From Cyanidioschyzon merolae (taxonomy: Eukaryota): 64,000 nucleotides of DNA. The notes beneath the pieces are model-generated. The model had not been told where the DNA came from. It made no database searches and saw nothing but the letters and a program-made list of their open reading frames with translations. The position numbers and the translations under genes are program-made. The stretch lies in the NCBI GenBank assembly GCA_000091205.1, contig AP006486.2. One strand, given 5' to 3'. Every line of letters begins with the position of its first letter. Position 1 is the stretch's first letter. This document shows positions 3,717 through 61,990 of this stretch, piece by piece.

Positions 3717-3752
<36 letters not shown>

Positions 3753-5386: not shown

Positions 5387-5420
<34 letters not shown>

Positions 5421-15299: not shown

Positions 15300-16150
15300 A
15301 GGCGACTTGAGGGCGCCGCCATTCGCGTCATCGGCTTGAAGACGAAAGATATTCTGCGCCATTCCTTGACGATTTCATCACAAGTTCATGCCGAAAGTTC
15401 GATGAACTTTTCAAGTCAAATAATCGATTTTGTTCGCGGGATAAAATCACCTTTTTTCTATCTATGGAACGGCATTCGAGGTCTGCACGATACATCTCAG
15501 GGGATACGCGCCCCCGGAGGCACCCGTCTCTTGCGCTTGCATGGAAAATGCGCCGTGGACAATGACCTGACTCATCGCAGCGATCGCTTCGAGTGGAGCG
15601 AGCGTCACCGCGCAGCATGATGGATGCTGAGACGGATCGAAAGTTCTCAACTTGCTCTCCATTCTGGGTTCTCTTTCCGATACTTATTTGATCACGGACA
15701 ACATCGCGATCCACAAATCCTTTATCGAATGGAACAGAATATGCTTCGCTACGCAGCATTCAGAGCACCCGCCGAGTTGCTCGTACAGAAGAACCTAATG
15801 ATCGTAGGGTATATCACCGGGCACTGAAACGGAGAAGGGTATCGAGGTGAGCATTCCGTGCCGGGCCCGGGTACGAACGAAAGATCAGGCCGGCGTTGAA
15901 GCGCCACCGGGCGGCGCTCAGCGGATGATGATGAGGAGCAGGTTCCTTGGTCACATGGGAACACCTGACGACTCTCGAGTGTTACAGCTGTGAAAGGCGC
16001 ACCGAGGCCGTATGAAAACAAGATGTCATGGTTAACCGAAGCGTAGATGCCAACTTCTGCCTCCGCATGAAAGCCGTCGACAGCAACCGCAAGCAACGAT
16101 GCCTGAACTTTAACCCTGACATCAAGAGCCCTCGACTGCTAACAACGGAA
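15300..16150 (-). repeat. dispersed repeat family B, copy 1 (about 800 bp)
   Basis: DNA and translated-fragment homology with 19230-20090 and 33250-33700. Shared peptide-level strings include GLGAPFTAVT / SLGAPFAAVT and VPFDKGFVDRDVVRDQISIG / VSFEKGFVERGAVHDDISIG / VPFDRRFYEREVVRIES. Boundaries are approximate. Confidence 0.5.
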
Positions 16151-16417
16151 CCTGAGCGAGAGGAGAATCCGGCGTGTAGAAAGCCGGAGATAACACAGAG
16201 GAAAAGGAAGGCGTCACAGAGTAAGCCCGCACAAGCTGGTGTTGCTTACACTCTGAAAGGCCCTGGACTTGAGTGTATGCGGTCGAGTTCATGGACATAT
16301 CTGGTTTGAGGCTGGTGTGAATGTGAGCCCCAGCTCGACGCTGATTCCCGTCGGCTGCGCAGACATCGGTACGACAACTCCGCACAAGAATTCTAGATTC
16401 TAGAGCGCTCGACCGAC

Positions 16418-16693: not shown

Positions 16694-19229
16694 CCGCAGC
16701 TGCCGAGGCTTGGCCTCCTCCGCAAAACAATCAGCCTGAACCACGTGTTCTATCAACTTGAGATGGGCCAGAACTGGTGCCCAAAGCCTTGGTCGTCGAG
16801 TTCAACGTCCAGAAGCGAAAACAGCTGCAGCCTGCCTCCCTGTCTTTTGCCGAGCTACGCGGGTATCTTTTCATGAGTGCGCTTTCACAGGGCAACTCCG
16901 ATATGGGAAACATCGCGGTACCTTTCACTGTCACTGGGGTTCTGTGCTTCCTGCTTCGATGATTACCAGGACGAGTGCCATAGCTCGCTCTGGTTGTTTC
17001 CAGAAACCGTGCTCATGTCGAGCCGAATGTCTTTTTCCCAGTAACGTGCCATACAGGCTCCGGGTCTCATTCGGTTATCCGCTTGAAACAGAGCACCCAT
17101 GAACCGATTCTAGCGTGTCTCGAGCTCGACGCGCACACACGCTGGAGATAAAGCAACGCACTGGCACACGGAATCGTTGACAGGAGCCGTACCCAGTTAG
17201 AAAAAGCGCAATGCCTACGCTCTCTCTACATCTCGTTCTCTACCGTATTCCATAGGCACGAGCGACGCCTCATGTCCGAGCAATATCACGGTGGTAGGTG
17301 CCCGGGAACCGACTGCAAACGCTCGTATGCGCGGAAGCGTGCGCGCTCAGCATCGCTGGTGACGCTGACAACCCAGCCACTCTTTACAAACGATCCAGAA
17401 TTCCCGTCCTGATGGATTCGCTTTTAGACATCTTTTTCATCATCTGTATTCGCATGAAATTGCCTGAAAGAAAGGACTGCACCATGTAGCGTTCATGATG
17501 CATCGCCCGCCATTGCCGAGCATCGCACATGTCGTGCATCAAGCGAAGGATCCATGATTTGTTCTGTTTCCGCATTGGCCGCCTCATCGCGGCAAGCATG
17601 AGACGATGTCGTTACTCGCCTGGGCCGATCGAGCCATCGAGATCTATCTAATGCTCTTTACGAGAATCTGCGGGCGGTAGCGAAGCTGTCTGCAGCGAGT
17701 TCGACCAAGACTTCTTACGCGCCAAAGATGCCATGCGCCTGGCGCACGCTCGTGCACTGGCGCTTCGCAACGACTGCGCATTCCGAATAACCCAGTATCG
17801 CTTTGGATCGGGTAAGACGCTTTCGTTGTCATCTCCGGATGCCAGAAACGTTTTCCCCTGGAGAATCGGGACTCGAGGCATACCCCAAGGTCTGTTTGGC
17901 CAGCGTTTATGGAAATACACGCCAAGTCGGCTGGTGGCACATCTTCGACTGCCGATTTCTCATCTGTGAACGTACTTGCTTCGCGCGCGGTATTCGGGCG
18001 GGGATCCCCTGAAACGATGAACTTTTCAGGACCGCAGACTTCACCTTGCATCCTGCAGAGCGTCGAATCGATTGTGGTGTCGGCACGTCCCTGCTGCCTC
18101 CATTCCTAATAAACGCCAGATCGATCGCTTGCGAGCCGTCGCTCCGCTGGAGGTGTCGCGTCGACGCTGACTTGGGCTTATCGCAGCGAAAGCGTTTCGA
18201 GTCATTCGCACTCGCGCCATCAAAGCCGCACTTGCATATCTTGTTGAGGAGTTTCAAACGGCTCTACAACAGCCGCAGGAACAAAGCGACGTTCACGCGA
18301 GAATCTGTTCCGTTGCCTGTAACCGGGTACATCTACGCAGTGCTCGGTTCCTGTTGCTAGATTCCTCTTTTCTCGCGGCCTATGATTGATGGAACGAATC
18401 AGACTGCCCTGTATGCAGGAACGCTGTCGCTTATCAGGTCTACCGTTTTGCTTCTTTCGAAGAAGCGTCCATGCTCTGCGCTCACCGAAGCAGCATGTCC
18501 GTATGCAACAACTGCTCGTTCGATCGAGCGATGCCGCGGCTACGAGCCTGCCTCTGACGCTTGCCGCAATACCGGACGCGCTGTACAGATACAGGACAGC
18601 GGCGTTATCCCTTCGAGGGTGTAGGCACCAGGGTCCACAATGCGGTGCTTCAGGCACCGTCTGTCGTGAGCCTGTCCGGGGCCCAGTGCCCGAACAGTGA
18701 CGCATACCTCATGATGTGTTGGCGATATGTGTACCCAGAAGCTGATGGGTACGTGCTCGCCATCGACAAATCAGTGACGCGTACGCGCGGATGCATAGAT
18801 TCGGAGGTGGAGGATCGTAGAATTGAACCAGAGATCCCCGATTGTTTGATGAAGATCGGCATCTGGAAAAGCGTCCATCAACCAGTGGCGTTCTTCGAAA
18901 CTCCGCCAGCCACCCGCCACTGACGCTTTCCTTTGGAGACCTATATCAGTTCGGGCGATGCCCCAGGCACCGTGCCTGCCCTGAGCGTCCGCTACGACGC
19001 CTACGGCGCCGGTGCAGAAGCCGCACGATTCACGACGATCGGTGTTCGGATGCGGATAAACCCATGGCAGACTAGAATGGAACGGGTGCACGTACCCAAC
19101 TGGGGCTAAGACTCTAAAATTTGGGTCTCTTCCCATTGTCGTCTGCAACAGCCTTTTCAGGCTTGTTCTGCTACTAATTCCCCTTCGCCTCTCTTAGCTC
19201 CGGCTTTCATGACGCTGGAATTTCCTTTC

Positions 19230-20090
19230 CCGAAGCTCCGTTTCCAATAGTCGATGCATGCTGATGAAAGGGCTACAGTCCCAGTTTGCAGCTTCCGGCC
19301 GCTGTTGATCTATTTCGCTTACATGCGAAAATTGGGATCTACGACTTGCTTGTCATTTTCATCTTCTTTGTATACAGCCTCGGTGCGCCATTTGCAGCGG
19401 TGACCAGTGGCAATTTTCCGGCTTGTTTAATTGTGTCCACCAGATCTCCTCCTCCGAGGGATGCTCTGTGGTGCGTGAACGCTCTCTTCATCGCTCGATG
19501 CATGACCTTCGCGGTGAAAGAAGGTTCGCGCTGATACCCTCCTTTACTTCAGCGCCGCCGGCTGTCGTGACACGACCATCGCGGGCCATTTCTGTGCGAT
19601 TCTGTCGGCGAGCACGCTGTCCGCTACCCGCGCAAGCAAACGCTGTTTCCTTTGAGAAAGGATTTGTGGAACGCGGTGCTGTCCACGATGACATAAGCAT
19701 CGGATGCGGACACCCAGGCTGGTACCCAAGGTAAGATATTTCGATCCGTTTACGCTCCCTTTGCGCAAACAGGTGACGTACGGCACATTAGATGCTTTCG
19801 CTGCGAGGACTGACGACCGAGTTAACGATCCTTATTCATGCAATGAGAAAAGACGGGCGCTTCTTGGAGCATATCTCTCAAGCGGCACCATGAAACTGTC
19901 GACTATTGTCTCGTCGACAGCCATCAAGATAAGACGACTTGACCTTCGAGCGAAGTCGATTATTTGACGTGACATGTTCCATGAAATCTCGATCTGAGCT
20001 TGTGAACAAGTCGTCAAGGCAGCATGTCGCATTTTCTTTCACGTCCATAGAACAGCGGCGCGAATGGCTGCGCCCACGACTTGTCGTGAA
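19230..20090 (+). repeat. dispersed repeat family B, copy 2
   Basis: Aligned by eye to the reverse complement of 15300-16150, including the tail ...atcgattatttgac.tga...cttgtga.caa.tcgtcaagg...gaatggc.gcgcccacgacttgtcg. Confidence 0.5.
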
Positions 20091-21039
20091 ACAAGAAATC
20101 GGGAGACCTTCAAGAATGCGTTATTTGAGCGCACTACCCCCGGAGAAAGGAGAAAAACAGTGGGAGCGTGTATGAATTCGTTGGGTAATGATTACCTTGG
20201 ATTCTGAAACCGTTTTGAAGGTTTTACAAATCATCTTGATTCCGGTGACGTGATGGGTGCCACCACGGGCGAGGCGTCGAGAGCGCCTCACCGAATGAGC
20301 GACCTATAATCCTATATCTACGTATGTATCCTCTATCTCTTATGACTACACGTCGGTTGACGATGCCGAACATCTGAACCAGAGTCCGGAAAGTAAGCCC
20401 AAGGCAAGGGTAAAGCGCACATTTCGTGCTCTTTTTCTTGCATTGGATAGGCAAGTAGCGTGGCGATGCGGAAACGTGTGCATCGGACGGGCACCAAATT
20501 TGCCTCCATGCACGGATTGCCCGTGAGGCAGCGTTGTGCGTGCGTGCCTGCGTGCGGTGGTGACGTGTCCGTCCCGCGAACACGCATCGGCGGAGCGTCG
20601 ACGCTGCTCCAACAGCGTTTGCGGGCGAACGCTCTAGTTCTTCACAGCGTCAGTCAGTGTGTTTGCTTGTGTTTGTGTGCGCGCGTAGCCAGCAGCAAGG
20701 AACCCGAGTTTGCTCGATAGGCTATTCTGCTGGGCGACGTGGCTGAAGCCAGTATTTCTCTGCGTCAGCGTGTCCCTTGCACACGAGCCGGCTGCAGGTC
20801 GCAACACGGAACGCTCGCAACACCGTAATAGCCTTTCGCACCGAGTCTGGGAAAGCGAACCTCGAAGCTTTTGCATCAAGAGGAATCGCTGGGCAGGCGC
20901 TGGACTACGCGTGGGCGGGTTTGTTCTGGCTGGTACCTGTGGAAGCACGCCTGAACACTTCGAGCAGTTTCTCCTTCTATAGGTAGTTGTATTTGCTCTT
21001 CGCGCTCTGTTGGCCGTTCCCTCGCTCTCCAGCGTCTAA

Positions 21040-24245: not shown

Positions 24246-24284
<39 letters not shown>
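24246..24284. repeat. (CAG)13 microsatellite, intergenic 3' of the Sec1-like gene
   Basis: Read directly. Confidence 0.85.
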
Positions 24285-24285
<1 letters not shown>

Positions 24286-25514
24286 TCACAGAAGAGATTC
24301 GGATGCCGCGGGACGGCACAAGACGTCCGAGCAGCTGGTGGCGTTCGGGTATCAAGGCATTGTACACGTTACGCGTTCTTCGGGGGCATGCACAGTCGAA
24401 GCATCAGCAGCGAGCATCTCGCAAAATGCGAGTACCGTCGACAATCGTGCGAATCATGGTAGCTACCGTACCTCTCGAGTAAGCCATGTTACCAGTTCTG
24501 ACCGTTCGTTGGCGCACAACCTGCAACAGTGAGCGCTGCACTGAACTCTGGTCCAGAATCGTTCCTATCGCGAGGCAAACTAGCGCGTAGACGCTCAAAT
24601 ATAGGAGTGGCGTGCTCGTTCCGGACCTACTGTATCGTGCCGCTCGTTTACACGTCGTCCATGAATGTGCGTGCGCGAAACGCGCTTCACTGCATGTGGT
24701 TCCACTGCCATTTGCAACACCGCGACACATCCACACCGCACTTAGACCGCGTGCGGCTACACTGCCAAACCGGATCCAGCGCCCAGCTATTCGCTCTGCC
24801 GCCTTCACAACCCGTGGCTGCGCAGCGGTGTCCCGCGTCAAGTGTCAAGCCTGTCGCGCCCGACTACTGCTCGTCTAGCCCGCTCGCACCAGCGCCATCA
24901 TTCGCCTGTTTCTGTTGCTGTCTGTCTCGTTTCCCTGGACGACTGTGTTGCTTTGCGTTCATCATCGTAAAGTAGAGACTGTAGACAGACTCTCGTTCCG
25001 CCGCACTAGCTGCTGCGTTTCCGCTCAGGTTAACACGTCTGCCGGGTGGACCACGAGGAACACGTTTCCGGTGCAAACGCGCATATTCCAAGTTGCGCAG
25101 CCGCTTCTCTTCCCGCAAGTCACGCCGTTGACGCATGAAGACTGACAGTGCTGCAGTGCCCGCCGAAGGGTACGGAGCACTGGAACGCTGCCTCGTTTCC
25201 ACTGCAGTTAATTTCTTCGAAGACGAAAGGAAAGCATATGAAGAATCTTTCGAAAAAGAAAGAGGTTTGAGTGATGAGATAAACATGACGTTCGATGGGT
25301 ACTTGGGAACGCCGCAACGCCACGAAACGACACCAAACGCCTTGCAGAAGAAAAACACTGCCGTGAGTGGTATTGTAGTGACGACGAACGCGTCTTGGAC
25401 AAACCATCTCCTGCTGACGGGCAGACGCCTCGCCGCCGTTCTCGACCGGCCACCCACGACTGGTTTCAACTTTTTCTCATATAGTTCTACTTTGAGAGGT
25501 TGTCCAACAAAATT

Positions 25515-27164
25515 CTATCTCGTCCACTCTGGAAGTCTATTCTCCAGCACCGCACATCTCCTTGTATTGATAGCGGCATTAATGTCTCGGTTCACAAACT
25601 CCATCCGTTTCTTGCCATCGTCGGTTGTACTTAATAATGCGAGTAGTCCACGAACTTTCGCTCTCCTTTCCATTTGCTCCTCCGTCAACGGTCCGTGCTT
25701 TGCTATTTCCTCAGGGCTCCGCTAATACGTTTCCATCTGGACCCTCTGGAGTGTACACCCCAGTTCATGGTGTGTATACGATGTTCGGAAGTCATCTACG
25801 GGCATCGTAACGAAACGCCGTGCGCACTCCTTGCACGTTTTTGTCGTTGGAGCTGGTGTAATGCCTTTTTTCGACGCCCAGCGCCCTGCTCCGTACGCTA
25901 CTACGAGCCTCTGACTTTCATTCTCCCTCCGGGCGCTCAACTGATTGAAAAAGTTCGAGAACGCCCGCTGCTTCCCACAACAGAAATTCATACGCAAACG
26001 AGCCCACCGGGGCTTGGTGGATTCTTTCCACAGGGCATCCCAATGAGCAGCGCGAACTTCCATGAACTCCCGAAATGCTTCAAAGTCGGTTCCTCGGCTC
26101 GTCACCTCGCTCAAAGCTTCCAGGTGATCCCTCACTCCTGAATTCCATCCAACGATTTTCATCCTCGCATTCATTATACCGGATTCCCGGTAATATCTAG
26201 CTCTTGACAACCTCAGCAGACGCTTGTCTTTATGACGTCAATTGTCGTCGACACTATCTTCCGCACGCTTGGGTACAGCGATGGTTATGATATTTGTGTT
26301 TCCGGGGTCCGCGCCAACGACAAAGCCGTTATCGTGCGCTTTCTGTGTTGCACGATCCACCTCCTTCTTTTCTCGATGCTTCGCCGCGCCAACGACAAAG
26401 CCGTTATCGTGCACTTCGTGTGTCGCAGGATCCTCCTTCTTCGTACCTTCATCCTTCGCCACGGGCGGAGCTGGACGATCTGTCTTCAAGCGCCGATAGT
26501 GTACAGACATGGCTACTCCATCGCTTTCGATCATCCCAGTGAATACCTTTCGCTTGCTCACTTTCAGACGTTTGAAATCGGCGAAATTCTTCTTCCAGTG
26601 CGTCTCCCGGCTTTCGCCGGAGAACTCCTCCCTGCTGACATGGAACTCGGGACTGATCTCCCTCATGATGCCGTAAAGGACGCCTGAATCGATAGTCACG
26701 AAATGTGACCTGATGTTGCACATTGGAACCACGTTGAAGCGCTTCCCCATTAGGAAAGCCTTCCGCCTCTCCCACTCCTCATTTGTCTCCTCATTCAGCT
26801 TCATTTCCGCCTTGCGTTCCAGCTCTCCGTCCAGAAACACGAAATAGCGCAGGGCGAGGCGATAGTATCTTTCCTTATCTTTTTTCGACTCTGATATCTT
26901 GTCTGTTGGACTCAGCAGCCCCAGTGCCGCACGGTGCTCTTCTACAACCGCACGGATGACAGAAGCTTCATTCGTGCTCTCGTTTGACGCCTTGTCTCCG
27001 ACGAATTCGATCTCCTGTTCATGCTGGCGATCGTTCGTGACGCCATTGGTAATCGCCCATTTTCCTTTGCGAGCGATGCCAGGGTACAGCGCAAACACGG
27101 CGCGTATCATGAAGCGTTCGAGGTTCATAGTCAAATGGTTCTTCAGGTTCGTGATGTACTTCAT
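25515..27164 (-). pseudogene. TnpB/Fanzor-like RuvC nuclease ORF (copy 1), interrupted
   Basis: RuvC-I-like [14 protein letters not shown]; RLVVAYGAGRW block; zinc-finger TCKECARRF...HHELGC; RuvC-III NRDINAAINIRRR after an in-frame TAG. There is an extra stop after ...DSVDDN. Confidence 0.55.
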
Positions 27165-28068
27165 CGCTCCGTATGTGTAAATGCACCAGTCAATTTTGTA
27201 TCGAGTACCGTCGAAGCTCTAAAAGGGATGTTTTTCGTGGAGGGCATGCACTAGCACACTTTCCCTCGGCGCTTCCGCTGCACCAAGCATCAGCTGTCGA
27301 ATAAAGGTCTTATCGAGAAACCCGTCCGGAATCCCGACCGTTTCCACCTGCGCCACGTCGCGATACATCTCCCTCGCCATATGCATCAGTCCTGACGACG
27401 CCTTGACAATACTCTTGGAGTATGACGCAACACTGTTTTCGATAGCGTCTCGCAGCTTTTCCCTGTACGGATCCTTGATATGTTTAAGAAGACAGACTTT
27501 GACGACCTACTTGTCGCACAGTCGTCTTTCGTGCCGCCTTCGACGCAGAGCGTCCCCCTTTCAGTCCTTCTTCTCTTCCTTTTCTTCTGGACTTGGCACT
27601 GTTTTTCTGTTTTTTCTGGCAGCCAGCGACACTGGGCCTCCAGGATCGTCGACTTGCTTTTCATAACTTCCTTTTTTTGTTTTTTTGGAAAACAACGCTC
27701 CCTCCAACGCCTCTGATATAAACAGCGAGGAAAACTTGAATAAACCAAACTGAGGGTTGAAATATAACTGAACTGAAAAGTACACTCTGCTATGACTTTA
27801 ACGCAAATGCAACTTGTACTTGAGAGCAACACGCTCAAGATCGCGATCCCGTTTCCCTTCAACGGCGAGACGCGTCGCGTTAGTTGACTGCCCGATCTCC
27901 CAGATGCGCCCACCGAGCGCGATTCTTTTTTTTCATGGACAAAACGTGTGCATAGGCCAGTGCTCTCGGATTATGCGCATTTTTCTTTTCTTTCTCTTTT
28001 ATTTTGTGTTTAACTTCAGTGCGCGGTAATGTATCTATAAAGCCCCCTCCCTCCAAGTTACATTACCT

Positions 28069-28500
28069 ATGCTGATTCTCGGATATTCTGGTCGTTTCAT
28101 ACGTCCTATCGTGTGTGCCTAGTACCTGCCTTTCCATATCCGCCTTTGGACCTTAAATGCTGGAGCAGATAGTTCATCGAGCTAGAGCAGCTTTTCTATA
28201 CCCCAGAGGGCGTCGGCTCGAGGCGTGCTTCACCCGACGTAGAATCGGGTCTCGTCGTCAGTTTGTGCTCGGACAGTCTGCGGATGCAGGCCTGTATTCG
28301 CTGCACGACATGCTGGAGAAACTTGACTATTAGGATGAATCCTGGGAGACGCCTCTCTCCCTCGTGATCATGCATGGAATGCGTTGTTGTCGGTTGGCAA
28401 TGCGGGTTTGTGCTTGACGCTCACCACAGTGGGTAGGCGCAGAAAGCATACTAAACCCGTGTGCGCGTCCGATTCGCTAGACCTTCCGCTTGGAAGGTAG
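28069..28500. repeat. about 430 bp core inside the element 5' region, related to the 55.2/61.3 kb repeats; contains a conserved hairpin gaccttccgcttggaaggta
   Basis: Shares ctcggatat.ctggtcgtttc.ta, ggcgtcggctcgaggcgtg.tt.c.ccgacgt and gaccttccgc.t.gaaggta blocks with 55309-55740 and 61429-61870. Confidence 0.45.
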
Positions 28501-29708
28501 CACGTGAGTCTGTTGGCCACGAATGAGCGCTGAGGCTCCGTTAGCGGACCATCAGTTGCCAGTGCTGCACTCAAAGTGAGTGTCCGGCCTTCGACTATCA
28601 CGGTGATACCCAGCTGCTGGTGTCCTTCAAGGAGCTCGCTGCGCTCCTGCTTCCAGCGCGGGCACTGTAACAGTAAATATGTCAGCGTCTCGGGGATCTC
28701 GTTTCCACAGCAGGGACATTTTGATTCTCAGTGCAATCCCAGTGTTCCCATACGGCTTAGAGTCGGTGCTGCTAGCCAGAAGCCACCAACGCGGATTTTG
28801 GCGCGCCACTGGCTACCGCGCGCAAGTCCCGGGAGCTCCAGCGCCTCCCACCAGTACTTGCATGTTTATGCCGGGTTCTAGTTCCGGTGTAGAGTCAAGA
28901 CGGGCGTTACTGGCACGACTGGTTCCGTGTCTACGTTCCCATATTGCTTTCTGGACGGTTCGCTTGAGGCGGCGGGAGCCTTCTACATTTCGGGGAAACG
29001 ATTGGAGAGCGTGTCTTCGCCTACGGAGAGATCAGATTGCGCGCACGCTCATCGCCGCTGATTGAAATTGGCCCGTTCGCGCGTCATGACCCGTGTCGTT
29101 GACACGCGGGTCATTCTGAAGCGCGCATCGCGCCTGCGCCAGCGCCGCAGCGGCCGCAGTGCTACGTGTCCACGTATCGAGCGATCCGCATGCGTGCGGT
29201 AAACGGATCAGCACGTGCGTTCGTTCGTGCGTGACAGGGCATCGAGCGAAAACGGATCCCCGCTGAGGCCAGTAACGTCGATGCCTGAAGCAACATGTCA
29301 ATGAGCCTGGTCCGTCGATGACGTTTCGTCGGAGGTGTTGGCCTCCCCAGAGCGTCGTTGTATGCTCATGTACGGGTTGATATTGGGTTAGGTTTAGGTT
29401 CGAGGTCAAGTCAACTGTGCCTGTTATCTGGTTCGCCATTGACGGGTGGCTCGATATCGCTGAGCGGTACCCAGCGCTGTGGGCCACTGTGTGCATATAG
29501 TTGAGGTGCACTTTGGGGTCCTCGAGGTTCGGTGGAAGTTGCCTGTTTGCAACTTGTTACTTGCACACAACGATTACGCACCGTTTCGAAGGCGAAACGC
29601 CCTCGTAGCGCCACAGCGAGTACGCGCTTGTAGAACAAGTTCACGGAAAGCGTCTGCAGCCGAGTCGTCTGGTGCCTGTGCGCAGTCGGCTCCGAGTCAC
29701 AGCCACCG

Positions 29709-40900: not shown

Positions 40901-41060
40901 CCCAAGAAGCAAACGAACATATGGAATGACGGTGACGGGACATGTTTCGATTCTCTGACCACCGTATCCAGCTGATCGGTGTATGCTTTGTAGGCTTCAG
41001 TCCGAGCGCGTATGAACGTCCAAACGGATCGTGCTAACGATATCCTCCAGAAGTATACGA

Positions 41061-41245
41061 GGCCGCTAGAAGTGTACAACGGATACGGTTGCACACAGGC
41101 AAGAGGCATCCATTTTGCAGCGTGTTCATTGAATCGGAAAAAAAGAAGTTACCGAGGCCGCTAGAAGTGTACAACGGATACGGTTGCACACAGGCAAGAG
41201 GCATGCATTGTGCAGCGTGTTTATTGAATCGGATCAAGATAGTAC
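41061..41245. repeat. tandem duplication, 2 x about 85 bp units (period about 98 bp)
   Basis: cgaggccgctagaagtgtacaacggatacggttgcacacaggcaagaggcat.catt.tgcagcgtgtt.attgaatcgga occurs twice, separated by aaaaaagaagttac. Confidence 0.8.
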
Positions 41246-48785: not shown

Positions 48786-48794
48786 ACCGACAAC

Positions 48795-51340
48795 GAATGC
48801 CTTTTACAAGAAAAAACGTTGCTGCCGCAAGTGGTATAGTAGTGGCGACAAACGCACCGTAGACAAGGAGTCTTCAGCCGACGTGCAGACGCATCTCAGT
48901 CTTTCTCGACCGGCCACCCACTACTTCTTCCAACATTTTTTCATATAGTTCGAGTTTGAGAGGTTGTCCAACAAAATTCTATCTCGTCCACTCTGGAAGT
49001 CTATTCTCCAGCACCGCACGTCTCCTTATATTGATAGCGGCATTAATGTCTCGGTTCACAAACTCCATCCGTTTCTTGCCATCACTGGATGTACTTAATA
49101 ATGCGAGTAGTCCACGAACTTTCGCTCTCCTTTCCATTTGCTCCTCCGTCAACGGTCCGTGCTTTGCTATTTCCTCAGGGCTCCGCTAATACTTTTCCAT
49201 CTCGACCCTCTGAAGTGTACACCCCAGTTCATGGTGTGTATACGATGTTCGGAAGTCATCTACGGGTATCGTAACGAAACGCCGTGCGCACTCCTTGCAC
49301 GTTTTTGTCGTTGGAGCTGGTGTAATGCCTTTTTTCGACGCCCAGCGCCCTGCTCCATACGCTACTACGAGCCTCTGACTTTCATTCTCCCTCAGGGCGC
49401 TCAACTGATTGAAAAAGTTCGAGAACGCCCGCTGCTTCCCACAATACAAATTCATACGCAAACGAGCCCACCGGGGCTTGGTGGATTCTTTCCACAGGGC
49501 ATCCCAATGAGCAGCGCGAACTTCCATGAACTCCCGAAATGCTTCAAAGTCGGTTCCTCGGCTCGTCACCTCGCTCAAAGCTTCCAGGTGATCCCTCACT
49601 CCTGACTTCTAGGTCTCATTTTGTTTCCTCGCATTCATTATACCGGAATCCCGGTAGGATCTCGCTCTCGGGAACTTGAAAACTCGCATGTCTTTATGAC
49701 GTAAATTGTCGTCGACACTATCTTCCGCACGCTTGGGTACAGCGACGGTTATGATATTTGTGTTTCCGGGGTCCGCGCCAACGACAAAGCCGTTATCGTG
49801 CACTTTCTGTGTTGCACGATCCACCTCCTTCTTTTCTCGATGCTTCGCCGCGTCAACGACAAAGCCGTTATCGTGCACTTCGTGTGTCGCAGGATCCTCC
49901 TTCTTCGTACCTTCATCCTTCGCCACGGGCGGAGCTGGACGATCTGTCTTTAAGCGCCGATAGTGTACAGACATGGCTACTCCATCGTTTTCGATCATCC
50001 CAGTGAATACCTTTCGCTTGCTCACTTTCAGACGTTTGAAATCGACGAAATTCTTCTTCCAGTGCGTCTCCCGGCTTTCGCCGGAGAACTCCTCCCTGCT
50101 GACATTGAACTCCGGACTGATCTCCCTCATGATGCCGTAAAGGACGCCTGAATCGATAGTCACGAAATGTGACCTGATGTTGCACATTGGAACCACGTTG
50201 AAGCGCTTCCCCATTAGGAAAGCCTTCCGCCTCTCCCACTCTTCATTTGTCTCCTCATTCAGCTTCATTTCCGCCTTGCGTTCCAGCTCTCCGTCCAGCA
50301 ACACGAAATAGCGCAGGGCGAGGCGATAGTATCTTTCCTTATCTTTTTTCGACTCTGATAGCTTGTCTGTTGGACTCAGCAGCCCCAGTACCGCACGATG
50401 CTCTTCTACAACCGCACGGATGACAGAAGCTTCATTCGTGCTCTCGTTTGACGCCTTCTCTCCGACGAATTCGATCTCCTGTTCATGCTTGCGATCGTTC
50501 GTGACGCCATTGGTAATCGCCCATTTTCCTTTGCGAGCGATGCCAGGGTACAGCGCAAACACGGCGCGTATCATGAAGCGTTCGAGGTTCATAGTAAAAT
50601 GGTTCTTCAGGTTCCTGATGTACTTCATCGCTCCGTATGTGTAAATGCACCAGTCAATTTTGTATCGAGTACCGTCGAAGCTCTAAAAGGGATGTTTTTC
50701 GTGGAGGGCATGCACTAGCACATTTTCCCTCGGCGCTTCCGCTGTACCAAGCATCAGGTGTCGAATAAAGGTCTTATCGAGAAACCCGTCCGGAATCCCG
50801 ACCGTTTCCATCTGCGCCACGTCGCGATACATCTCCCTCGCCATATGCATCAGTCCTGAAGACGCCTTGACAATACTCTTGGAGTATGACGCAACACTGT
50901 TTTCGATAGCGTCTCGCAGCTTTTCCCTGTACGGATCCTTGATATTTTTAAGAAGACAGACTTTCACCACCTTCTTGTCGCACAGTCGTCTTTCGTGCCG
51001 CCTTCGACGCAGAGCGTCCCACTTTCAGTCCTTCTTCTCTTCCTTTTCTTCTGGACTTGGCACTGTTTTTCTGTTTTTTCTGGCAGCCCGCGACACTGGG
51101 CCTCCAGGATCATCGACTTGCTTTTCATAACTTCCTTTTTTTTGTTTTTTTTTGGAAAACAACGCTCCCTCCAACGCCTCTGATATAAACAGCGAGGAAA
51201 ACTTGAATAAACCAAACTGAGGGTTGAAATATAACTGAACTGAAAAGTACACTCTGCTATGACTTTAACGCAAATGCAACTTGTACTTGAGAGCAACACG
51301 CTCAAGATCGCGATCCCGTTTCCCTTCAACGACGACATGC
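48795..51340 (-). mobile_element. Fanzor/TnpB-bearing repeat element, copy 2 (5'-truncated), left arm of a head-to-head inverted pair
   Basis: Homologous to copies 1 and 3 from the 3' region through the nuclease ORF. Ends at the junction string gttgaagggaaacgggatcgcgatc..., lacking its own 5' region. Confidence 0.6.
48979..50628 (-). pseudogene. TnpB/Fanzor-like RuvC nuclease ORF (copy 2), interrupted
   Basis: Same motifs as the other copies; private frameshift/stop after ...ARKQNET plus the shared in-frame TAG before RuvC-III. Confidence 0.55.
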
Positions 51341-54300
51341 GCGTCGTATCTCATGCCTGCCAGATATGGAGGTGCGCGTATCGACCGCGATGCCCCCTGG
51401 CACTGTATGGGCCGAGGGGCCCACCATGCGCACCCGGTTCAGTCGGATATCCATGCAGACCCCAACGCACCGCAAGAACACTTGGATGAAATCGATGCAG
51501 ATTTGGCTGAAGCGACGGTTATGCGAAAACACGCTCGAATCGTTCCCCAGAAATGTAGAAGGCTCCTACCGCCTCAAGCGAACTGTTCGAACAACCATAT
51601 GGGAACGTAGACACGGAACCAGTCGCGCCAGTAACGCCCGCCTTGACTCTATACCGGAACTACAACCTAGCATACACATGCGAGTACTGGTGGGAGGCGC
51701 TGGAGTTCCCGGGACTTGCTCGCGGTATCCAGTGGCTCGCCAAAATCCGCGTTGGTGGTTGCTGACTACCAGCACCTGCGCTAAACCATATAGGAACACT
51801 GGAATCGCAGTGGGAATCACACTGTCCCTGCTGTGGAAACGATAAACCCGAGACGCTGACATATTTAGGCTTACAGTGCGCGCGCTGGAAGCAGGAGCGC
51901 AGCGAGCTCCTTGAAGGACGGCATCAGCCGGGTATCACCGTGATAGTCGAAGGCCGGACACTCACTTTGAGTGCAGCACTGGCAACTGATGGTCCGCTAA
52001 CGGAGCCTCAGCGCTCATTCGTGGCCAACAGACTCACGTGCTACCTTCCAAGCGGAAGGTCTAGCGAATCGGACGCGCACACGGGTTTAGTATGCTTTCT
52101 GCGCCTATCCACTGTGGTGAGCGTCAAGCACAAACCCGCATTGCCAACCGACAACAACGCGTTCCATGCATGATCACGAAGGAGAGAGACGACTCCCAGA
52201 ATATATCTTAACGGCCAAGTGTCTCCAGCGTGTCGTGCCGCGAAGGCAAGCTTGCATCCGCAGACCGTCCGAGCACAAACTGACGACGAGACCCGATTCT
52301 ACGTCGGGTGAAGCACCCCTCGAGCCGACGCCCTCTGTGGTATGGAAAAGCCGTTCTAGCTCGATAAACTCTCTGCCCCAGCGGTTCAAGCGCAAAGGCG
52401 GATATGGAACGGCAGGTATTAGGTACCCACGACAGGACGTATGAGACGATCAGTATCTCCAAGAAGAAGTATAGGTAATGTAACTTGGAGGGAGGGGGCT
52501 TTATGGATATATTACCGCGCGCTGAAGTAAAACGCAAAACAAAAGAGAACGAAAAGAAAAAGCGCACAATAGGAGAATGCTGGCCCAAGTAAACGTCTTA
52601 TCAATAGAAAAATTGCCGTCGTTGAAGGGAAACGGGATCGCGATCTTGAGCGTGTTGCTCTCAAGTACAAGTTGCATTTGCGTTAAAGTCATAGCAGAGT
52701 GTACTTTTCAGTTCAGTTATATTTCAACCCTCAGTTTGGTTTATTCAAGTTTTCCTCGCTGTTTATATCAGAGGCGTTGGAGGGAGCGTTGTTTTCCAAA
52801 AAAAACAAAAAAAAGGAAGTTATGAAAAGCAAGTCGATGATCCTGGAGGCCCAGTGTCGCGGGCTGCCAGAAAAAACAGAAAAACAGTGCCAAGTCCAGA
52901 AGAAAAGGAAGAGAAGAAGGACTGAAAGTGGGACGCTCTGCGTCGAAGGCGGCACGAAAGACGACTGTGCGACAAGAAGGTCGTCAAAGTCTGTCTTCTT
53001 AAACATATCAAGGATCCGTACAGGGAAAAGCTGCGAGACGCTATCGAAAACAGTGTTGCGTCATACTCCAAGAGTATTGTCAAGGCGTCTTCAGGACTGA
53101 TGCATATGGCGAGGGAGATGTATCGCGACGTGGCGCAGATGGAAACGGTCGGGATTCCGGACGGGTTTCTCGATAAGACCTTTATTCGACACCTGATGCT
53201 TGGTACAGCGGAAGCGCCGAGGGAAAATGTGCTAGTGCATGCCCTCCACGAAAAACATCCCTTTTAGAGCTTCGACGGTACTCGATACAAAATTGACTGG
53301 TGCATTTACACATACGGAGCGATGAAGTACATCAGGAACCTGAAGAACCATTTTACTATGAACCTCGAACGCTTCATGATACGCGCCGTGTTTGCGCTGT
53401 ACCCTGGCATCGCTCGCAAAGGAAAATGGGCGATTACCAATGGCGTCACGAACGATCGCAAGCATGAACAGGAGATCGAATTCGTCGGAGAGAAGGCGTC
53501 AAACGAGAGCACGAATGAAGCTTCTGTCATCCGTGCGGTTGTAGAAGAGCACCGTGCGGCACTGGGGCTGCTGAGTCCAACAGACAAGATATCAGAGTCG
53601 AAAAAAGATAAGGAAAGATACTATCGCCTCGCCCTGCGCTATTTCGTGTTTCTGGACGGAGAGCTGGAACGCAAGGCGGAAATGAAGCTGAATGAGGAGA
53701 CAAATGAGGAGTGGGAGAGGCGGAAGGCTTTCCTAATGGGGAAGCGCTTCAACGTGGTTCCAATGTGCAACATCAGGTCACATTTCGTGACTATCGATTC
53801 AGGCGTCCTTTACGGCATCATGAGGGAGATCAGTCCCGAGTTCCATGTCAGCAGGGAGGAGTTCTCCGGCGAAAACCGGGAGACGTACTGGAAGAAGAAT
53901 TTCGTCGATTTCAAACGTCTGAAAGTGAGCAAGCGAAAGGTATTCACTGGGATGATCGAAAGCGATGGAGTAGCCATGTCTGTATAGTATCGGCGCTTGA
54001 AGACAGATCGTCCAGCTCCGCCCGTGGCGAAGGATGAAGGTACGAAGAAGGAGGATCCTGCGACACACGAAGTGCACGATAACGGCTTTGTCGTTGACGC
54101 GGCGAAGCATCGAGAAAAGAAGGAGGTGGATCGTGCAACACAGAAAGTGCACGATAACGGCTTTGTCGTTGGCGCGGACCCCGGAAACACAAATATCATA
54201 ACCGTCGCTGTACCCAAGCGTGCGGAAGATAGTGTCGACGACAATTTACGTCATAAAGACAAGCGTCTGCTGATGTTGTCAAGAGCTAGATATTACCGGG

Positions 54301-55165
54301 AATCCGGTATAATGAATGCGAGGAAGAAAATCGTTTCATGGAATTCAGGAATGAAAGATCACCTGGAAGCTTCGAGCGAGGTTACGAGCCGAGGAGCCGA
54401 CTTTGAAGCATTTCGGGAGTTCATGGAGGCTCGCGCTGCTCATTGGGATGCCCTGTGGAAAGAATCCACCAAGCCCCGGTGGGCTCGTTTGCGTATGAAT
54501 TTCTGTTGTGGGAAGCAGCGGGCGTTTTCGAACTTTTTCAATCAGTTGAGCGCCCGGAGGGAGAATGAAAGTCAGAGGCTCGTAGTAGCATACGGAGCAG
54601 GGCGCTGGAAGACCCAAAAGGGACTATGCCAGCTCCAACGACAAAAACGTGCAAGGAGTGCGCACGGCGTTTCGTTACGATGCCCGTAGATGACTTCCGA
54701 ACATCGTATACACACCATGGACTGGGGTGTACACTCCAGAGGGTCCAGATGGAAAAGTATTAGCGGAGCCCTGAGGAAATAGCAAAGCACGGACCTTTGA
54801 CGGAAGAGCAAATGGAAAGGAGAGCGAAAGTTCGTGGACTACTCGCATTATTAAGTACATCCAGTGATGGCAAGAAACGGATGGAGTTTGTGAACCGAGA
54901 CATTAATGCCGCTATCAATATAAGGAGACGTGCGGTGCTGGAGAATAGACTTCCAGAGTGGACGAGATAGAATTTTGTTGGACAACCTCTCAAACTCGAA
55001 CTATATGAAAAAATGTTGGAAGAAGTAGTGGGTGGCCGGTCGAGAAAGACTGAGATGCGTCTGCACGTCGGCTGAAGACTCCTTGTCTACGGTGCGTTTG
55101 TCGCCACTACTATACCACTTGCGGCAGCAACGTTTTTCTTTCGAAAGGCGTTCGCTAGCAGCCTT
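51341..55165 (+). mobile_element. Fanzor/TnpB-bearing repeat element, copy 3 (with 5' region), right arm of the inverted pair
   Basis: The 5' region 51535-52625 matches copy 1 27870-29025 in inverted orientation. The body 52625-55165 is the inverted duplicate of 48795-51340. Confidence 0.6.
53322..54969 (+). pseudogene. TnpB/Fanzor-like RuvC nuclease ORF (copy 3; most contiguous), interrupted by in-frame stops
   Basis: ...[16 protein letters not shown] (RuvC-I) ... [18 protein letters not shown] ... RLVVAYGAGRW ... C-x2-C zinc finger ... EKY-TAG-RSPEEIAKHGPLTEEQMERRAKVRGLLALLSTSSDGKKRMEFVNRDINAAINIRRRAVLENRLPEWTR (RuvC-III). A private TAG sits at 53988. An in-frame 95 aa N-terminal extension (about 52980-53270) is separated from the main ORF by a single TAG. 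Confidence 0.6.
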
Positions 55166-55189
55166 CGATGATGCGTTCTTCGGGAACAG

Positions 55190-55870
55190 CTGCGTTTTTT
55201 TTTCTGATGAAAAAATGGTTAGATTCACTATGGATCCCAGAATTCGGAATGGATAATGGCTTTCGGGAAAGCGTCCACGATGAAGCGCCTACCTTCAAGT
55301 TCTATCACGCATACTTCCTCTCGGATATACTGGTCGTTTCGTATATTCTATCGTGCGCCGAGCCTGCCGTGAACACCCGCCGTAGCGCTTATACCACTGA
55401 AGCAGATGCCACACGGAGACAGAACGGCTTTGCCATACCACTGAAGGCATCGACTCGAGGCGTGGTTCCTCCGACGTGGGGTCGGAGTACATAATATATC
55501 TGGGAGCCTGTAAGCTGCGCAGACAGACGCACTGCCTGTGGCAGCGCGGAGCGATCTACAAGGAGTCCACTGTGACCACGGAGACGCCCAGACGCAGCAT
55601 CCTGCTCCAAGTCCCCGAATGAAATGCGTTGCGGACGAGTTGTGCAGGTATCGCCACAAAACCTGCCATTGGAGGAAGCATGAAGCACTAGCTAGCCCCG
55701 AAGACTCGTCCGGCTCGCGGGACCTTCCGCCTAGAAGGTAAAGTTTCGAAGATGCGGAAACTTTCCCCCTTTTCCATGAGTCATATCAAGGTCGAAAGAA
55801 ACTGTTATCGAGTTGCTAGTCAGTTGTTAGTTTCTGTTCTTTCGTCTCTAGGAGAAAGCTCGCTGCTCAC
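55190..55870 (+). repeat. about 680 bp dispersed repeat (family R), copy adjacent to element copy 3
   Basis: About 80% identical, in direct orientation, to 61320-61990. Core 55309-55740 is related to the element 5' region and ends with the hairpin gaccttccgcctagaaggta. Confidence 0.6.
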
Positions 55871-56251: not shown

Positions 56252-57328
56252 ATGTTGAGGTGCGACTTTTGTGAGACGACGGAGACGCCATTATGGCGCG
56301 CGGGCCCTCGCGGACCCAAGACTCTGTGTAACGCCTGTGGCGTGAAGTGGAAAAAGGGGAAGCTTGATGGCTTCGGTCCCGGTGCCTGTAATGTGCCCAG
56401 AACGCACACGGGAAAGAGGCATCCGCGAGCGGTATATGGAAGACCTCGTCGAGCAGGTGCCGTCGCGGATGCGCTGGAACTGCCTTCCCCGGAACGCAGC
56501 CTCAGCAAGTTCCGGGGAAGCGTCCGTCCGGGTTGGTATGTGCCGTCCGAACTCGAGTACTCTGGCAGAATTCAACACCCGAGGCGGAGTAGCTCGCCGC
56601 CTGAAACACGCTGTGCGTACGTTGACGTTGATCGTGAGGACTCAGCACCGGTCGTGCGAGAGCAGTTTGCGCCCTCTGTTTTCGCACCCAGTATTCCTTG
56701 TCGCGGAGAGAGCGCGCCTCTTAATATTGTGCGAAAGGATGCAGGTCGTGGTCCCGGAACACAACATACAACGTTACCGGCGGACCACTTGATTCGTGAG
56801 TCGCTGTTCGTTCGCGTCGATAGTGAACGGGCGTTGGCGTCGGACCCCATTGGGTATCCAGCGGCGATACCGTCCTGGGATGACGTCTCCATTGAATCGC
56901 TCTCCGAGGATGGTGACGGTGCCGACAACTACCATGACTTGGAGCTGAACCTGCCCGAACAAATGCCTCTGCCCGACGCTGCGCATACAAGTACGCACGT
57001 CCTCGGAGGTGAGCATGACTGGCGTCACGCCCAAGGCGCTGCATCTGGGGAAACTGCCTTGCCACTGCCACTGCCGCTGGCACCCGCGAAAGGCTCACTA
57101 ACGAAAACCATGGAACGTGAGCCTGTGGATGCTGCTACCAAAGGTGTCCGTCTGCTCCTAGATGCAGCGCGGTACGTGGAGTACGCGAGCAGCCCGCTCT
57201 CGTCGCAGTGGTCACCCCTGAGATCGGCATCGTCCAGCGCTCCGCCGTATCACCAGGCTGGTACCTCGTCCCCGAACCGTCTCACACCATCCTATCTAAC
57301 ACCAATGGTGCTGGAGAAGGACTGGTAA
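56252..57328 (+). CDS. GATA-type zinc-finger protein
   Basis: N-terminal CDFCETTETPLWRAGPRGPKTLCNACGVKWKKG is a C-x2-C-x17-C-x2-C GATA finger with the TPLWR and LCNACG hallmarks; the rest is low-complexity. Confidence 0.55.
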   Translation: MLRCDFCETTETPLWRAGPRGPKTLCNACGVKWKKGKLDGFGPGACNVPRTHTGKRHPRAVYGRPRRAGAVADALELPSPERSLSKFRGSVRPGWYVPSELEYSGRIQHPRRSSSPPETRCAYVDVDREDSAPVVREQFAPSVFAPSIPCRGESAPLNIVRKDAGRGPGTQHTTLPADHLIRESLFVRVDSERALASDPIGYPAAIPSWDDVSIESLSEDGDGADNYHDLELNLPEQMPLPDAAHTSTHVLGGEHDWRHAQGAASGETALPLPLPLAPAKGSLTKTMEREPVDAATKGVRLLLDAARYVEYASSPLSSQWSPLRSASSSAPPYHQAGTSSPNRLTPSYLTPMVLEKDW

Positions 57329-59641: not shown

Positions 59642-61183
59642 CTACGGGATCTCCTCGGGGAGCACCGGGGACGCTGCCCCGAACACCCTTTGGATGTAGT
59701 CATTATCGAATCCTTGAAAAATTTGCTCACGTTCTGCAGTTGCCTTTGAACTGCCAATGCCAGCCTCTGGCACTGCATGTTCTGAATTGTCCGAAAGCGT
59801 GGTGTCTGTAGCGCATGTATGCCGACCAAGCGACAAGTGATGGCGACGAGCGCCGTGCTCACGTAGTGCCGCTTCAATGAGGGCTGGATTGGAACGCTCT
59901 TCTTTCTTGAATTTGTTCTTGATTTGTTTTCGGTTTCGATTGGGAAAGAGCTGCTCAATCATAGAATAGTTTTGACCGAAAGCTCGTAGCGCACGATAGA
60001 AAAGCGCAGTCTCCTCAGGCGGCCAGCGCTCACAAGAGGCGCGATTCGTGAAGGACGCAATGGTCGCAGCACCGCGGCGAGGCGCTCCAGTATGCGTTTC
60101 AACAGAGATGTTCTCGTTCTCTGCTGGACGCTGCTCGCTCGTTATGGCAGTGCGCAGAAGTCTCTGCTGCTCAGCGCGTATCGCTCGACGGTGGCGCTGG
60201 ACACGGCGCTGCAGATCGCACTCGACCGACGCTGGACCCGAAGCCGCTGACGCCATCGAAGCGTTACCTCCCACCGCACCAGCATGATCTGAATGCTGTT
60301 CAGGGTGCACGCTTTCTTGTCCAGCATCAGCGTGCGCATCCGCCACATGCGAAGCGGTGACGACTAACGAGCGCTCATCCAGGACAAGGTTGCCGCGATT
60401 ATCTAAGCGGACCTGTGGTGCAAGAACGACGGTATCTGCACCAGGGATCCGTCGGTCGAGCCTGTCGGATTGTGTGTCCTCCACGATAGCAGGCGATTCA
60501 TAGAGTCGTTCAGGAACCAACACATCACGTGTGGCTGGTGCCCCTGATACACCGCCTTGCCTAGGCGATGGGCCCTCGGTCTCTGCGGGTATCTGCAACC
60601 CGATGTCTTTCGCAGACGCTTCCGCAACTGTTTCTTCAGAGCCAGGTGAGCAGTGTGCGGTACCCGTACGGTTGTCAGCCTGTCGTCGACGGCGGTCCAC
60701 AGTTGGAGTGCGGTTGACGGGGCGCTGGCGGCTTCGTACGAGTTCTCGGATCCCTAGAGAGAGAGGATCAACGCTCATGGCTCCCGTATAACTTTTCTCA
60801 GCGTCTACTGCGCTTGCATCACTTGGTCGCGAGTGGCCCAGGCTGCTTCCGCCCGTCATTCGCGTGCGTTCAACATCCTGCACGAACCGAGACAACGGCG
60901 GAGAGACTAGCAGCCGTGTCATACCGCCCTGTTCAGAGACAGCTTCAGCGTCCAAATAGTCGTCCGAGCCGACATCAACTTCGGGGACGCTGCGTTGACC
61001 CGGAACTACGTGACTTGCGACCTCCGAGTGAGGAGCTTCGTTGACTCCCACAGTGCCGCTGGACGGGTGCGTGTTCGGCGACCTTGGGGTCTGCCGCGGC
61101 ACACGCCGTTGGCGCTTTCGCGAAGCACCCTCTGGCGGTAGTGAGGCTACCAACTCGATATTTTCAGTTGGTGAAGTCGACAT
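59642..61183 (-). CDS. Bdp1-like protein (TFIIIB B'' subunit; SANT/Myb-like domain)
   Basis: RWPPEETALFYRALRAFGQNYSMIEQLFPNRNRKQIKNKFKKEERSNP matches the Bdp1 SANT signature (W..EET.LFY.AL..FG.....I..LFP.R.R.QIK.KFK.EER.NP) from memory. Stop codon is TAG. Confidence 0.6.
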   Translation of the reverse strand: MSTSPTENIELVASLPPEGASRKRQRRVPRQTPRSPNTHPSSGTVGVNEAPHSEVASHVVPGQRSVPEVDVGSDDYLDAEAVSEQGGMTRLLVSPPLSRFVQDVERTRMTGGSSLGHSRPSDASAVDAEKSYTGAMSVDPLSLGIRELVRSRQRPVNRTPTVDRRRRQADNRTGTAHCSPGSEETVAEASAKDIGLQIPAETEGPSPRQGGVSGAPATRDVLVPERLYESPAIVEDTQSDRLDRRIPGADTVVLAPQVRLDNRGNLVLDERSLVVTASHVADAHADAGQESVHPEQHSDHAGAVGGNASMASAASGPASVECDLQRRVQRHRRAIRAEQQRLLRTAITSEQRPAENENISVETHTGAPRRGAATIASFTNRASCERWPPEETALFYRALRAFGQNYSMIEQLFPNRNRKQIKNKFKKEERSNPALIEAALREHGARRHHLSLGRHTCATDTTLSDNSEHAVPEAGIGSSKATAEREQIFQGFDNDYIQRVFGAASPVLPEEIP

Positions 61184-61319: not shown

Positions 61320-61990
61320 CCCTTTTTTTCGATGACGAAACGTTTATATGGACCGTGGATCCCAGATTGCTGAATCCATACAGGCTTTCGGGAATGTTTC
61401 CATTATGCAGGGCAATACTCCCAAGTTCCGTCACGTATACTTCCTTTCGGATATACTGGTCGTGTTGTACATGCTATCGTTCACAGAGTACCCGCTGTGA
61501 GCGCTCGCCGTAGCGCCTTTACCGCTGGTGCGGATGAAGCGCGGAGACGGAACGGCGTTGGTATGCCCATAGACATGTAGGCTCGAGGCATGGTGCACCT
61601 GATACGGTGTCGGAGTACGTAGTAATTCTGGGAGCCTGCAAACTGCGTAGACAGACCTACTGCCTGCGGTACCGGGAGGCGATAAACTAGGAGTCCACCG
61701 CGACCGGGGTGATATCCAGATGCAGCTTAACTGCCCCTAGTCCTGGAATAAACTGCACTGCGGACGAGTTGCTCAGATCTCACTGAGGCACGAGGCACAG
61801 TGGGGAGCAAGAAGCGCAAGCGCGGCAAACTCGTCCGGCTCACGGGACCTTCCGCCTGGAAGGTAAACTAGCGATAATACGGAAACCTTTTCCCCTTTTA
61901 CCGTCTACGTTAGAGAGGGAAAGAAATCGCTATCTCGTTCCTAGTTCGTGGTTCGTCTCTGTTCTCTTTTCTATCCCACATCAATCTATG
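61320..61990 (+). repeat. about 680 bp dispersed repeat (family R), second copy
   Basis: Aligned by eye to 55190-55870, including tggatcccaga..., ggagtac.ta.ta.t.tctgggagcctg.aa.ctgcg.agacagac and ...ctcgtccggctcacgggaccttccgcctggaaggtaaa. Confidence 0.6.

Follow-up and report, generated by a model that had tools for sequence, protein, structure and literature searches.

The 64,000-nt stretch of Cyanidioschyzon merolae contig AP006486.2 (assembly GCA_000091205.1) that was analyzed here, referred to as the window, contains two direct copies of a dispersed repeat, R1 and R2 (Table 1), as well as three Fanzor1 units. The question raised by this locus is what kind of sequence the repeat is, and whether it belongs to the Fanzor element. 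The initial annotation considered a structured RNA, possibly related to the guide RNAs of TnpB-family nucleases, or a non-autonomous, MITE/SINE-like derivative. Very probably, the repeats in question are non-LTR retroposon copies of one family that had been read on their antisense strand: the retroposon sense strand is the minus strand, and the T-runs of the plus strand are poly(A) tails. R1 and R2 are copies of a non-autonomous retroposon of approximately 640 nt that is derived from a LINE rather than from Fanzor. This reading is based on homology to a published consensus, on the continuity of a reverse transcriptase (RT) ORF with the repeat, on a common poly(A) end combined with a variable 5' end, and on duplications of 12 to 14 bp. 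Of the earlier suggestions, the SINE-like kind of element was right, whereas its parent is a LINE instead of Fanzor, its sense strand is the opposite one, and it does not have the features of a MITE. It is thus a non-autonomous retroposon of an ordinary kind, which had been recorded as a repeat before.

Two copies of a catalogued repeat

The repeat is real and far above chance. In a self-BLAST of the window, R1 and R2 were aligned on the same strand (55197-55840 and 61323-61965, 652 columns, E=8e-91) with 72.1% identity, at a spacing of 6.1 kb. The two direct copies of about 680 bp, some 6 kb apart, that had been described initially are thereby confirmed, but the identity of about 80% ascribed to them holds only with respect to the family consensus (80-82%), the pairwise value being 72%. 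Pfam also supported the statement that the copies flank a GATA and a Bdp1-like gene, namely, a GATA-finger ORF at 56252-57328 and a Myb/SANT Bdp1-like ORF at 59642-61183 on the minus strand. A part of R1 of about 200 nt (55288-55485) additionally matches 28046-28248 on the same strand (69%) and 52293-52495 on the opposite strand (71%). A profile built from these four copies detected two further, decayed partial copies in the window, which are listed with R1 and R2 in Table 1.

Table 1. Positions of the repeat copies, LINE copies, Fanzor1 units, and flagged palindrome in the window
Feature	Position	Strand	Basis
Decayed partial copy, same 3'UTR region	9351-9519	(-)	nhmmer, E=1.7e-15; 84.8% to CMe-1A positions 125-189
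Decayed partial copy of the R1/R2 family	18806-19047	(-)	nhmmer, E=2.4e-9
Fanzor1 unit, copy 1	25328-27923	minus	self-BLAST
LINE copy, 5'-truncated, adjoining Fanzor copy 1 at its 5' end	27926-29023	(-)	tblastn, self-BLAST
Poly(A) of this LINE copy	27926-27933		
3'UTR of this LINE copy	27934-28367		
ORF2 stop of this LINE copy	28368-28370		
Fanzor1 unit, copy 2	48788-51391	minus	self-BLAST
Second 5'-truncated LINE copy, between Fanzor copies 2 and 3	51406-52612	(+)	tblastn, junction alignment
Stop ending the ORF2 remnant of the second LINE copy, followed by the 3'UTR	52171-52173		
A5 tail of the second LINE copy	52608-52612		
Fanzor1 unit, copy 3	52614-55154	plus	self-BLAST; CMe-1A position 648 onward; Fanzor homologues
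R1, TE-N2_CMe retroposon copy	55195-55850	(-), retroposon sense	blastn to CMe-1A; profile match, E=1.6e-202
Flagged palindrome GACCTTCCGCCTAGAAGGTA	55721-55740	not assigned (.)	pattern search
R2, second TE-N2_CMe copy	61323-61974	(-)	blastn to CMe-1A

As read directly from the sequence, the poly(A) of R1 is present as T9 on the plus strand (55195-55203), and its retroposon 5' end lies at approximately 55842-55850; the poly(A) of R2 is T7 on the plus strand (61323-61329). Inspection of the flanks revealed only imperfect candidates for a target-site duplication at both copies, that of R2 being the possible duplication TCT(GT)TATCCC / TCTATCCC. R1 and R2 are neither MITEs nor solo LTRs: a search for inverted repeats within the copies or between their ends found none, and their termini read T-run...GTTCTTT, not TG...CA. 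With identities of 72-82%, the window copies are old, and they look inert. The approximately 40 nt that separate the end of Fanzor copy 3 from the R1 tail (55155-55194) resemble a fragment of a LINE 3' end (ATGCG...TCGG.GAAC.GCTG). The apparent orthologue of the R1 locus in contig L074 has a longer LINE fragment, and a 10-bp duplication, GGAGAA(C/T)GCT, surrounds the TE-N2 copy there. R1 may be nested within an older LINE fragment.

Clear correspondences exist between these copies and published elements of this alga. In blastn searches against the CMe-1A consensus (supplementary file 2 of PMC3627910), R1 corresponded to positions 2-644 (82.2%) and R2 to positions 1-643 (79.7%), while the Fanzor units of the window matched from position 648 onward (79-81%). 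CMe-1A is a Fanzor1 element of C. merolae of about 3.2 kb that is present in about 150 copies, each about 80% identical to the consensus (PMC3627910). Its 5' 635 bp are 95% identical to a separate element with about 70 copies, TE-N2_CMe (Bao & Jurka 2013, Mob DNA 4:12, PMC3627910). Both elements are without terminal inverted repeats (TIRs), no target-site duplications were reported for them, and their class was left unknown (PMC3627910). R1 and R2 are of the same family as the TE-N2_CMe of Repbase, with the same typical divergence from the consensus (about 80%) and the same relation to the Fanzor1 ORF, and, judged by these matches, the repeat is already catalogued under this name. However, TE-N2_CMe had been oriented by the Fanzor ORF (PMC3627910), whereas it is read here on the opposite strand, where it turns out to have an A-tail, to be flanked by target-site duplications, and to be homologous to the 3' end of a LINE.

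The genome of C. merolae was reported to contain 26 non-LTR retrotransposons, which are the only retroelements reported, and no LTR elements (Nozaki et al. 2007, PMC1955436). The same study described a 3.2-kb interspersed element with 253 copies, accounting for about 5% of the genome, with a truncated ORF that resembles a white spot syndrome virus protein (PMC1955436). This element matches CMe-1A, that is, TE-N2 plus the Fanzor unit. In that report the 3.2-kb element and the non-LTR class were left unlinked, whereas here the upstream 640 nt are found to be derived from a LINE tail. TE-N2_CMe, and hence the upstream 640 nt of CMe-1A, which were unclassified in 2013, can therefore be classified as an opposite-strand LINE-tail retroposon. 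The classification of TE-N2 as LINE dependent may be new. Contigs L055, L090, L098, and L100 are approximately 96-99% identical to parts of the window.

A LINE tail read on the opposite strand

The link to a LINE emerges from related loci. In five of them (L015, L081, L115, L118, and L004), an RT ORF on the opposite strand runs straight into the repeat, and tblastn with the conceptual LINE ORF2 gave the order RT, C-terminal CCHC-like domain, stop, UTR of about 430 nt, and A-tail. The ORF contains the RT motifs FIDFQKAFD and FADD, and that of L118 matches RVT_1 with E=2.6e-23. Database homologues of ORF2 are proteins of 1200-1450 aa with Exo_endo_phos (PF03372) and RVT_1 (PF00078) domains, some of which are named jockey or LINE-1 ORF2. 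It was the RT-motif ORF of L004, opposite to the repeat and running into it, that caused the constant T-run at the apparent start of the repeat to be reread as a poly(A) tail.

For a census of copies, metagenome contigs were scanned with a 22-nt internal pattern, which yielded 120 DNA stretches with 134 unique copies. A common poly(A) end, read as 3-9 T and then CATGGACAAAACG, was found in 103 of the 113 copies with both ends readable, and the other end was scattered over profile positions 104-772, as is the case for 5' truncation. Four LINE-type copies (L051, L097, L123, and L022) are immediately bounded by perfect target-site duplications of 12-14 bp, against a frequency of 0.002 in a control of mismatched pairs, and in L032 the perfect 12-bp duplication GCAGCTCGTGAT occurs on both sides of a full-length TE-N2. 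Five independent insertions thus have perfect duplications of 12-14 bp. Taken with the RT continuity and the common A-tail end, these related loci identify the R1/R2 repeat as the 3' end of a non-LTR (LINE) element.

Two subfamilies were distinguished. The short one comprises R1, R2, and their relatives of about 640 nt, and the other is the RT-bearing LINE proper, which includes the copies that adjoin Fanzor copies 1 and 3. The two are homologous up to a point just past the hairpin that had been flagged initially. TE-N2 has a defined 5' end, (G)AAAGAACAGA, which is common to five copies with unrelated flanks. Its 3' part of about 540 nt is homologous to the LINE end, namely, the last part of ORF2, the 3'UTR of about 430 nt, and the short poly(A). 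Over the last 284 nt, TE-N2 shares 80.6% identity with the tail of the RT-bearing L081 LINE. TE-N2 thus has a 3' tail in common with a partner LINE, as SINEs do. No pol III-type head (tRNA, 7SL, or 5S) was found by ARAGORN or in Rfam searches at the gathering score and at E<=1, and TE-N2 therefore falls outside the strict definition of a SINE. The possibility that its head of about 100 nt is the LINE's own 5' end, which would make TE-N2 an internal-deletion derivative, was rejected, as no similarity was detected.

Pairs of a LINE with a SINE, or with a deletion derivative, that have a common 3' tail are well established and include the stringent-type LINEs with their partner SINEs and the HAL1-type derivatives of L1. 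TE-N2 resembles them in being short and non-autonomous, in starting at a fixed 5' end and closing with the 3' end of a resident RT-encoding LINE, and in having a poly(A), 5'-truncated copies, and duplications of about 12-14 bp. It differs from these pairs in being neither a strict SINE, as no tRNA, 7SL, or 5S head was found, nor a simple internally deleted LINE.

By analogy with established LINE and SINE biology, a LINE with an APE endonuclease and an RT would be transcribed, and the transcript would be copied, starting at its 3' end, at a nick in the target DNA (target-primed reverse transcription). Tails, truncations, and duplications are the pattern that this copying step leaves behind. TE-N2 would be copied in trans by the LINE RT because it carries the LINE 3' tail. 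The islands that are conserved between the subfamilies would then be candidate recognition sites of the RT, or may simply be the slowest-decaying parts.

Within the window, ORF2 is present only as a C-terminal remnant. Self-BLAST and tblastn indicate that the stretch taken for a 5' region at Fanzor copies 1 and 3 consists in each case of a separate, 5'-truncated LINE copy of 1.1-1.2 kb and does not belong to Fanzor. A multiple alignment of the window copies contained all three sequence blocks that the initial annotation had listed as common to the repeat and this region; the blocks are hence real, but the region is not Fanzor's own. In the copy next to Fanzor copy 1, an ORF2 C-terminus remnant with a CCHC-like motif lies upstream of the stop (78.7% over 174 aa at 28892-28371 in tblastn with the LINE ORF2 C-terminus). 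At the second copy, tblastn matched 51321-51644 and 51649-52170, the latter with the same 174 aa conserved at 78.7%; this copy is collinear with L001 8403-9600 (85.7%). The two LINE units are 88.7% identical to each other, as compared with 95-97% among the three 2.6-kb Fanzor1 (TnpB-like) units, and the junction between LINE unit and Fanzor unit was found to be sharp by self-BLAST and junction alignment.

Retroposon ends at the Fanzor units

All three Fanzor copies of the window contain in-frame stops and a frameshift, and these near-identical units look like duplicated pseudogenes. A stop after ...HEKHPF is common to at least copies 2 and 3. A search with a composite Fanzor protein retrieved 61 relatives, nearly all from JGI metagenomes, on whose contigs the repeat and the Fanzor unit are neighbors. 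One of these contigs, L001, encodes an intact Fanzor relative of 752 aa. A tandem duplication of 75 bp in the Fanzor ORF (26309-26463, 49773-49927, and 54023-54177) encodes a repeated segment, the copy number of which varies in related loci, with extra units in L003.

The 5' terminus of the Fanzor unit is sharp, (GCA)TCGCG(G/C)TCG..., and abuts a retroposon end in nearly every copy examined; L060 is the only examined copy without a retroposon at this end. Four types of junction were distinguished. In type I, the canonical CMe-1A arrangement seen in eight diverged composites, the defined 5' end of TE-N2 is followed by a linker of about 10 nt. In type II, Fanzor adjoins the poly(A) terminus of either a LINE or TE-N2 (window copies 1 and 3, L024, L029, L081, and L068), in type III a LINE truncated at about 1.3 kb (window copy 2 and L001), and in type IV a long LINE 5' region (L004, L006, and L081). 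A palindromic arrangement of a Fanzor unit on the minus strand, a retroposon, and a Fanzor unit on the plus strand was seen three times independently, with a different retroposon each, namely, at 48788-55154 of the window, in L081, and in L068/L084. The flanks of the Fanzor 3' ends are mostly unique. Most of the junction loci were fetched via the repeat itself and form a biased sample; the same junctions were present in four distinct loci fetched with the Fanzor protein (L001, L002/L003, L004/L005, and L006) and in all three window copies.

Alternatively, R1 and R2 could be leftovers of complete CMe-1A elements from which the 2.6-kb Fanzor unit was later deleted or excised. TE-N2 is indeed a constant upstream module of CMe-1A, with the same junction kept in the eight diverged composites, so some of the solo copies could be CMe-1A remnants and not independent insertions. 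Furthermore, R1 and R2 extend to consensus position 643-644, into the linker of about 10 nt, while the TE-N2 copy of L032 with its clean duplication ends at 636, and the distance between R1 and the 3' end of Fanzor copy 3 is 41 nt. However, local alignment found no remnant of the Fanzor 5' terminus above chance after R1 or R2: the scores were 12 and 16, as compared with a random-window mean of 14.4, and 1928 of 2000 and 441 of 2000 shuffles, respectively, scored as high. R2 in addition has its plausible, imperfect target-site duplication at its own ends. An origin of R1 and R2 from complete CMe-1A elements is thus considered unlikely, and independent retroposon insertion is the preferred reading.

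A further reading concerns CMe-1A, which accounts for roughly 5% of the C. merolae genome and lacks a transposase, TIRs, and target-site duplications: the element could depend on its LINE-derived TE-N2 module. Two versions of such a dependence can be envisaged. In the first, an antisense transcript ending in the LINE tail would be copied by the LINE RT, so that CMe-1A would be a retroposon carrying Fanzor. In the second, the precise junctions would reflect a mechanistic coupling, for example, the capture of LINE cDNA at breaks at the left end of Fanzor. No target-site duplications were seen by eye around whole TE-N2 plus Fanzor composites (L002, L044, and L116), and no 5'-truncated composites, such as retro-mobilization should generate, were found, the full Fanzor unit being present in all five of the composites that could be evaluated. 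Together with the mean size of 3.2 kb of the interspersed element (PMC1955436), this argues against retro-mobilization of whole CMe-1A. A dependence in either version appears improbable. The Fanzor/retroposon junctions offer a concrete starting point for finding out how Fanzor, lacking a transposase, came to be present in 150-250 copies.

The flagged hairpin and the structured RNA proposal

The initial annotation placed emphasis on a hairpin with a 6-bp stem and a 4-nt loop. The underlying palindrome, GACCTTCCGCYTRGAAGGTA, does exist and was found four times by pattern search, in R1 (Table 1), at 61846-61865, at 28480-28499, and reverse-complemented at 52042-52061, but the geometry differs from that described: R1 has 6 bp with a 6-nt loop, and the other three have 7 bp with a 4-nt loop. 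In the LINE copies the palindrome lies inside the ORF2 reading frame, about 37 codons before the stop, and encodes ...C-Y-L-(L/P)-(G/S)-G-R-S-S... The diversity at the three codon positions over the last 64 ORF2 codons, including the hairpin, was 0.099/0.093/0.125, which is not distinguishable from that of the UTR (0.111/0.110/0.157) and gives no evidence of coding constraint. A reading of the hairpin AAG|GTAA as a splice donor, at the end of a 5'UTR exon or of a spliced leader, was dropped, as the repeat is antisense to the LINE ORF.

According to the structured RNA proposal, the repeat would give rise to a non-coding RNA that might serve Fanzor as a guide or as an omega-RNA-like partner, the islands and the hairpin being the functional core. 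It was assessed with 37 copies, filtered to below 93% pairwise identity and with a mean identity of 64%. The flagged hairpin had 0 compensatory changes and 31 unpaired cells in these copies and was no better than column shuffles; the consensus fold of the whole alignment was nearly empty (-2.2 kcal/mol, 8 pairs), and Rfam gave no match to the repeat even at E<=1. What speaks for conserved structure are the discrete islands that are retained between subfamilies otherwise only about 55-65% alike, and the structure that RNAalifold derived from 150-column windows on the LINE-sense strand, in which both-sides changes were found in 122 cells as compared with 60 in shuffles, for example, in the stem at alignment columns 466-506. 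However, this excess consists mostly of single splits between subfamilies A and B, the structure was derived from the same alignment, and energies were similar on both strands, so that a functional strand is not indicated. Any structure would moreover belong to the LINE 3'UTR and not to Fanzor, and at most a few local stems of this UTR, such as that at columns 466-506, may be conserved.

The comparison with known guide RNAs points in the same direction. The omega-RNA of Fanzor and TnpB is transcribed from the same strand as the nuclease gene, at the 3' end of that gene, and extends 14-15 nt into the flank (review PMC13565253). The repeat has in common with it that it is non-coding and lies at one end of a TnpB-family element. 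In contrast to the omega-RNA, the repeat occupies the 5' side, upstream of the Fanzor ORF in CMe-1A, has an antisense orientation as an element, lacks covariation, and also occurs without Fanzor. R1, although downstream of Fanzor copy 3, inserted separately and has a tail of its own. The link to a TnpB-type guide RNA that had been raised is hence not sustained, and a structured RNA is very improbable. The findings correspond instead to the outcome that the initial annotation had named as refuting its proposal, with no covariation of the hairpin and with decaying ends and target-site duplications, although these are of a non-LTR retroposon rather than of TIRs or LTRs. The R1/R2 repeat is a decaying transposon fragment that should be masked rather than pursued as an RNA gene.

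A conserved GCCACTAC(T/G)GTACAC motif followed by a hairpin was noted at the 3' end of the Fanzor units themselves (~55100-55150, ~25330-25380, and ~48790-48840), the stem of which differs between copies (CGTTCGA-CTT-TCGAACG versus AACGTTTTTC...GAAAGGCGTT). This is the position at which a guide-RNA scaffold, a right-end hairpin, or a terminator would be expected.

The view that the repeat is a host regulatory module, such as a promoter or 5'UTR, that was duplicated before several genes can practically be dismissed: intergenic copies do lie near gene starts, upstream of the GATA gene and divergently from the Bdp1-like gene and from a 2350-aa ORF ending at 9205, but in a genome this dense in genes nearly any intergenic insertion has a gene start close by, the copies are free to decay (72% identity), and the poly(A) end, 5' truncation, duplications, and RT continuity are hallmarks of a transposon.

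Several other repeats were observed in the window. A diverged dispersed repeat forms an inverted pair about 4 kb apart (15293-16241 and 19146-20093, 65-74%), and its family is also represented in metagenome contigs (L001 1573-1743 and L003 2326-2994). An intergenic 95-bp unit is present twice in tandem at 41049-41233 with 93% identity. Trinucleotide runs of the CAG/CTG type, which code for poly-Q or poly-A depending on the frame, occur at 24246-24285, 3721-3755, and 5386-5419; such runs are found in a number of ORFs, and self-BLAST aligned them with each other.
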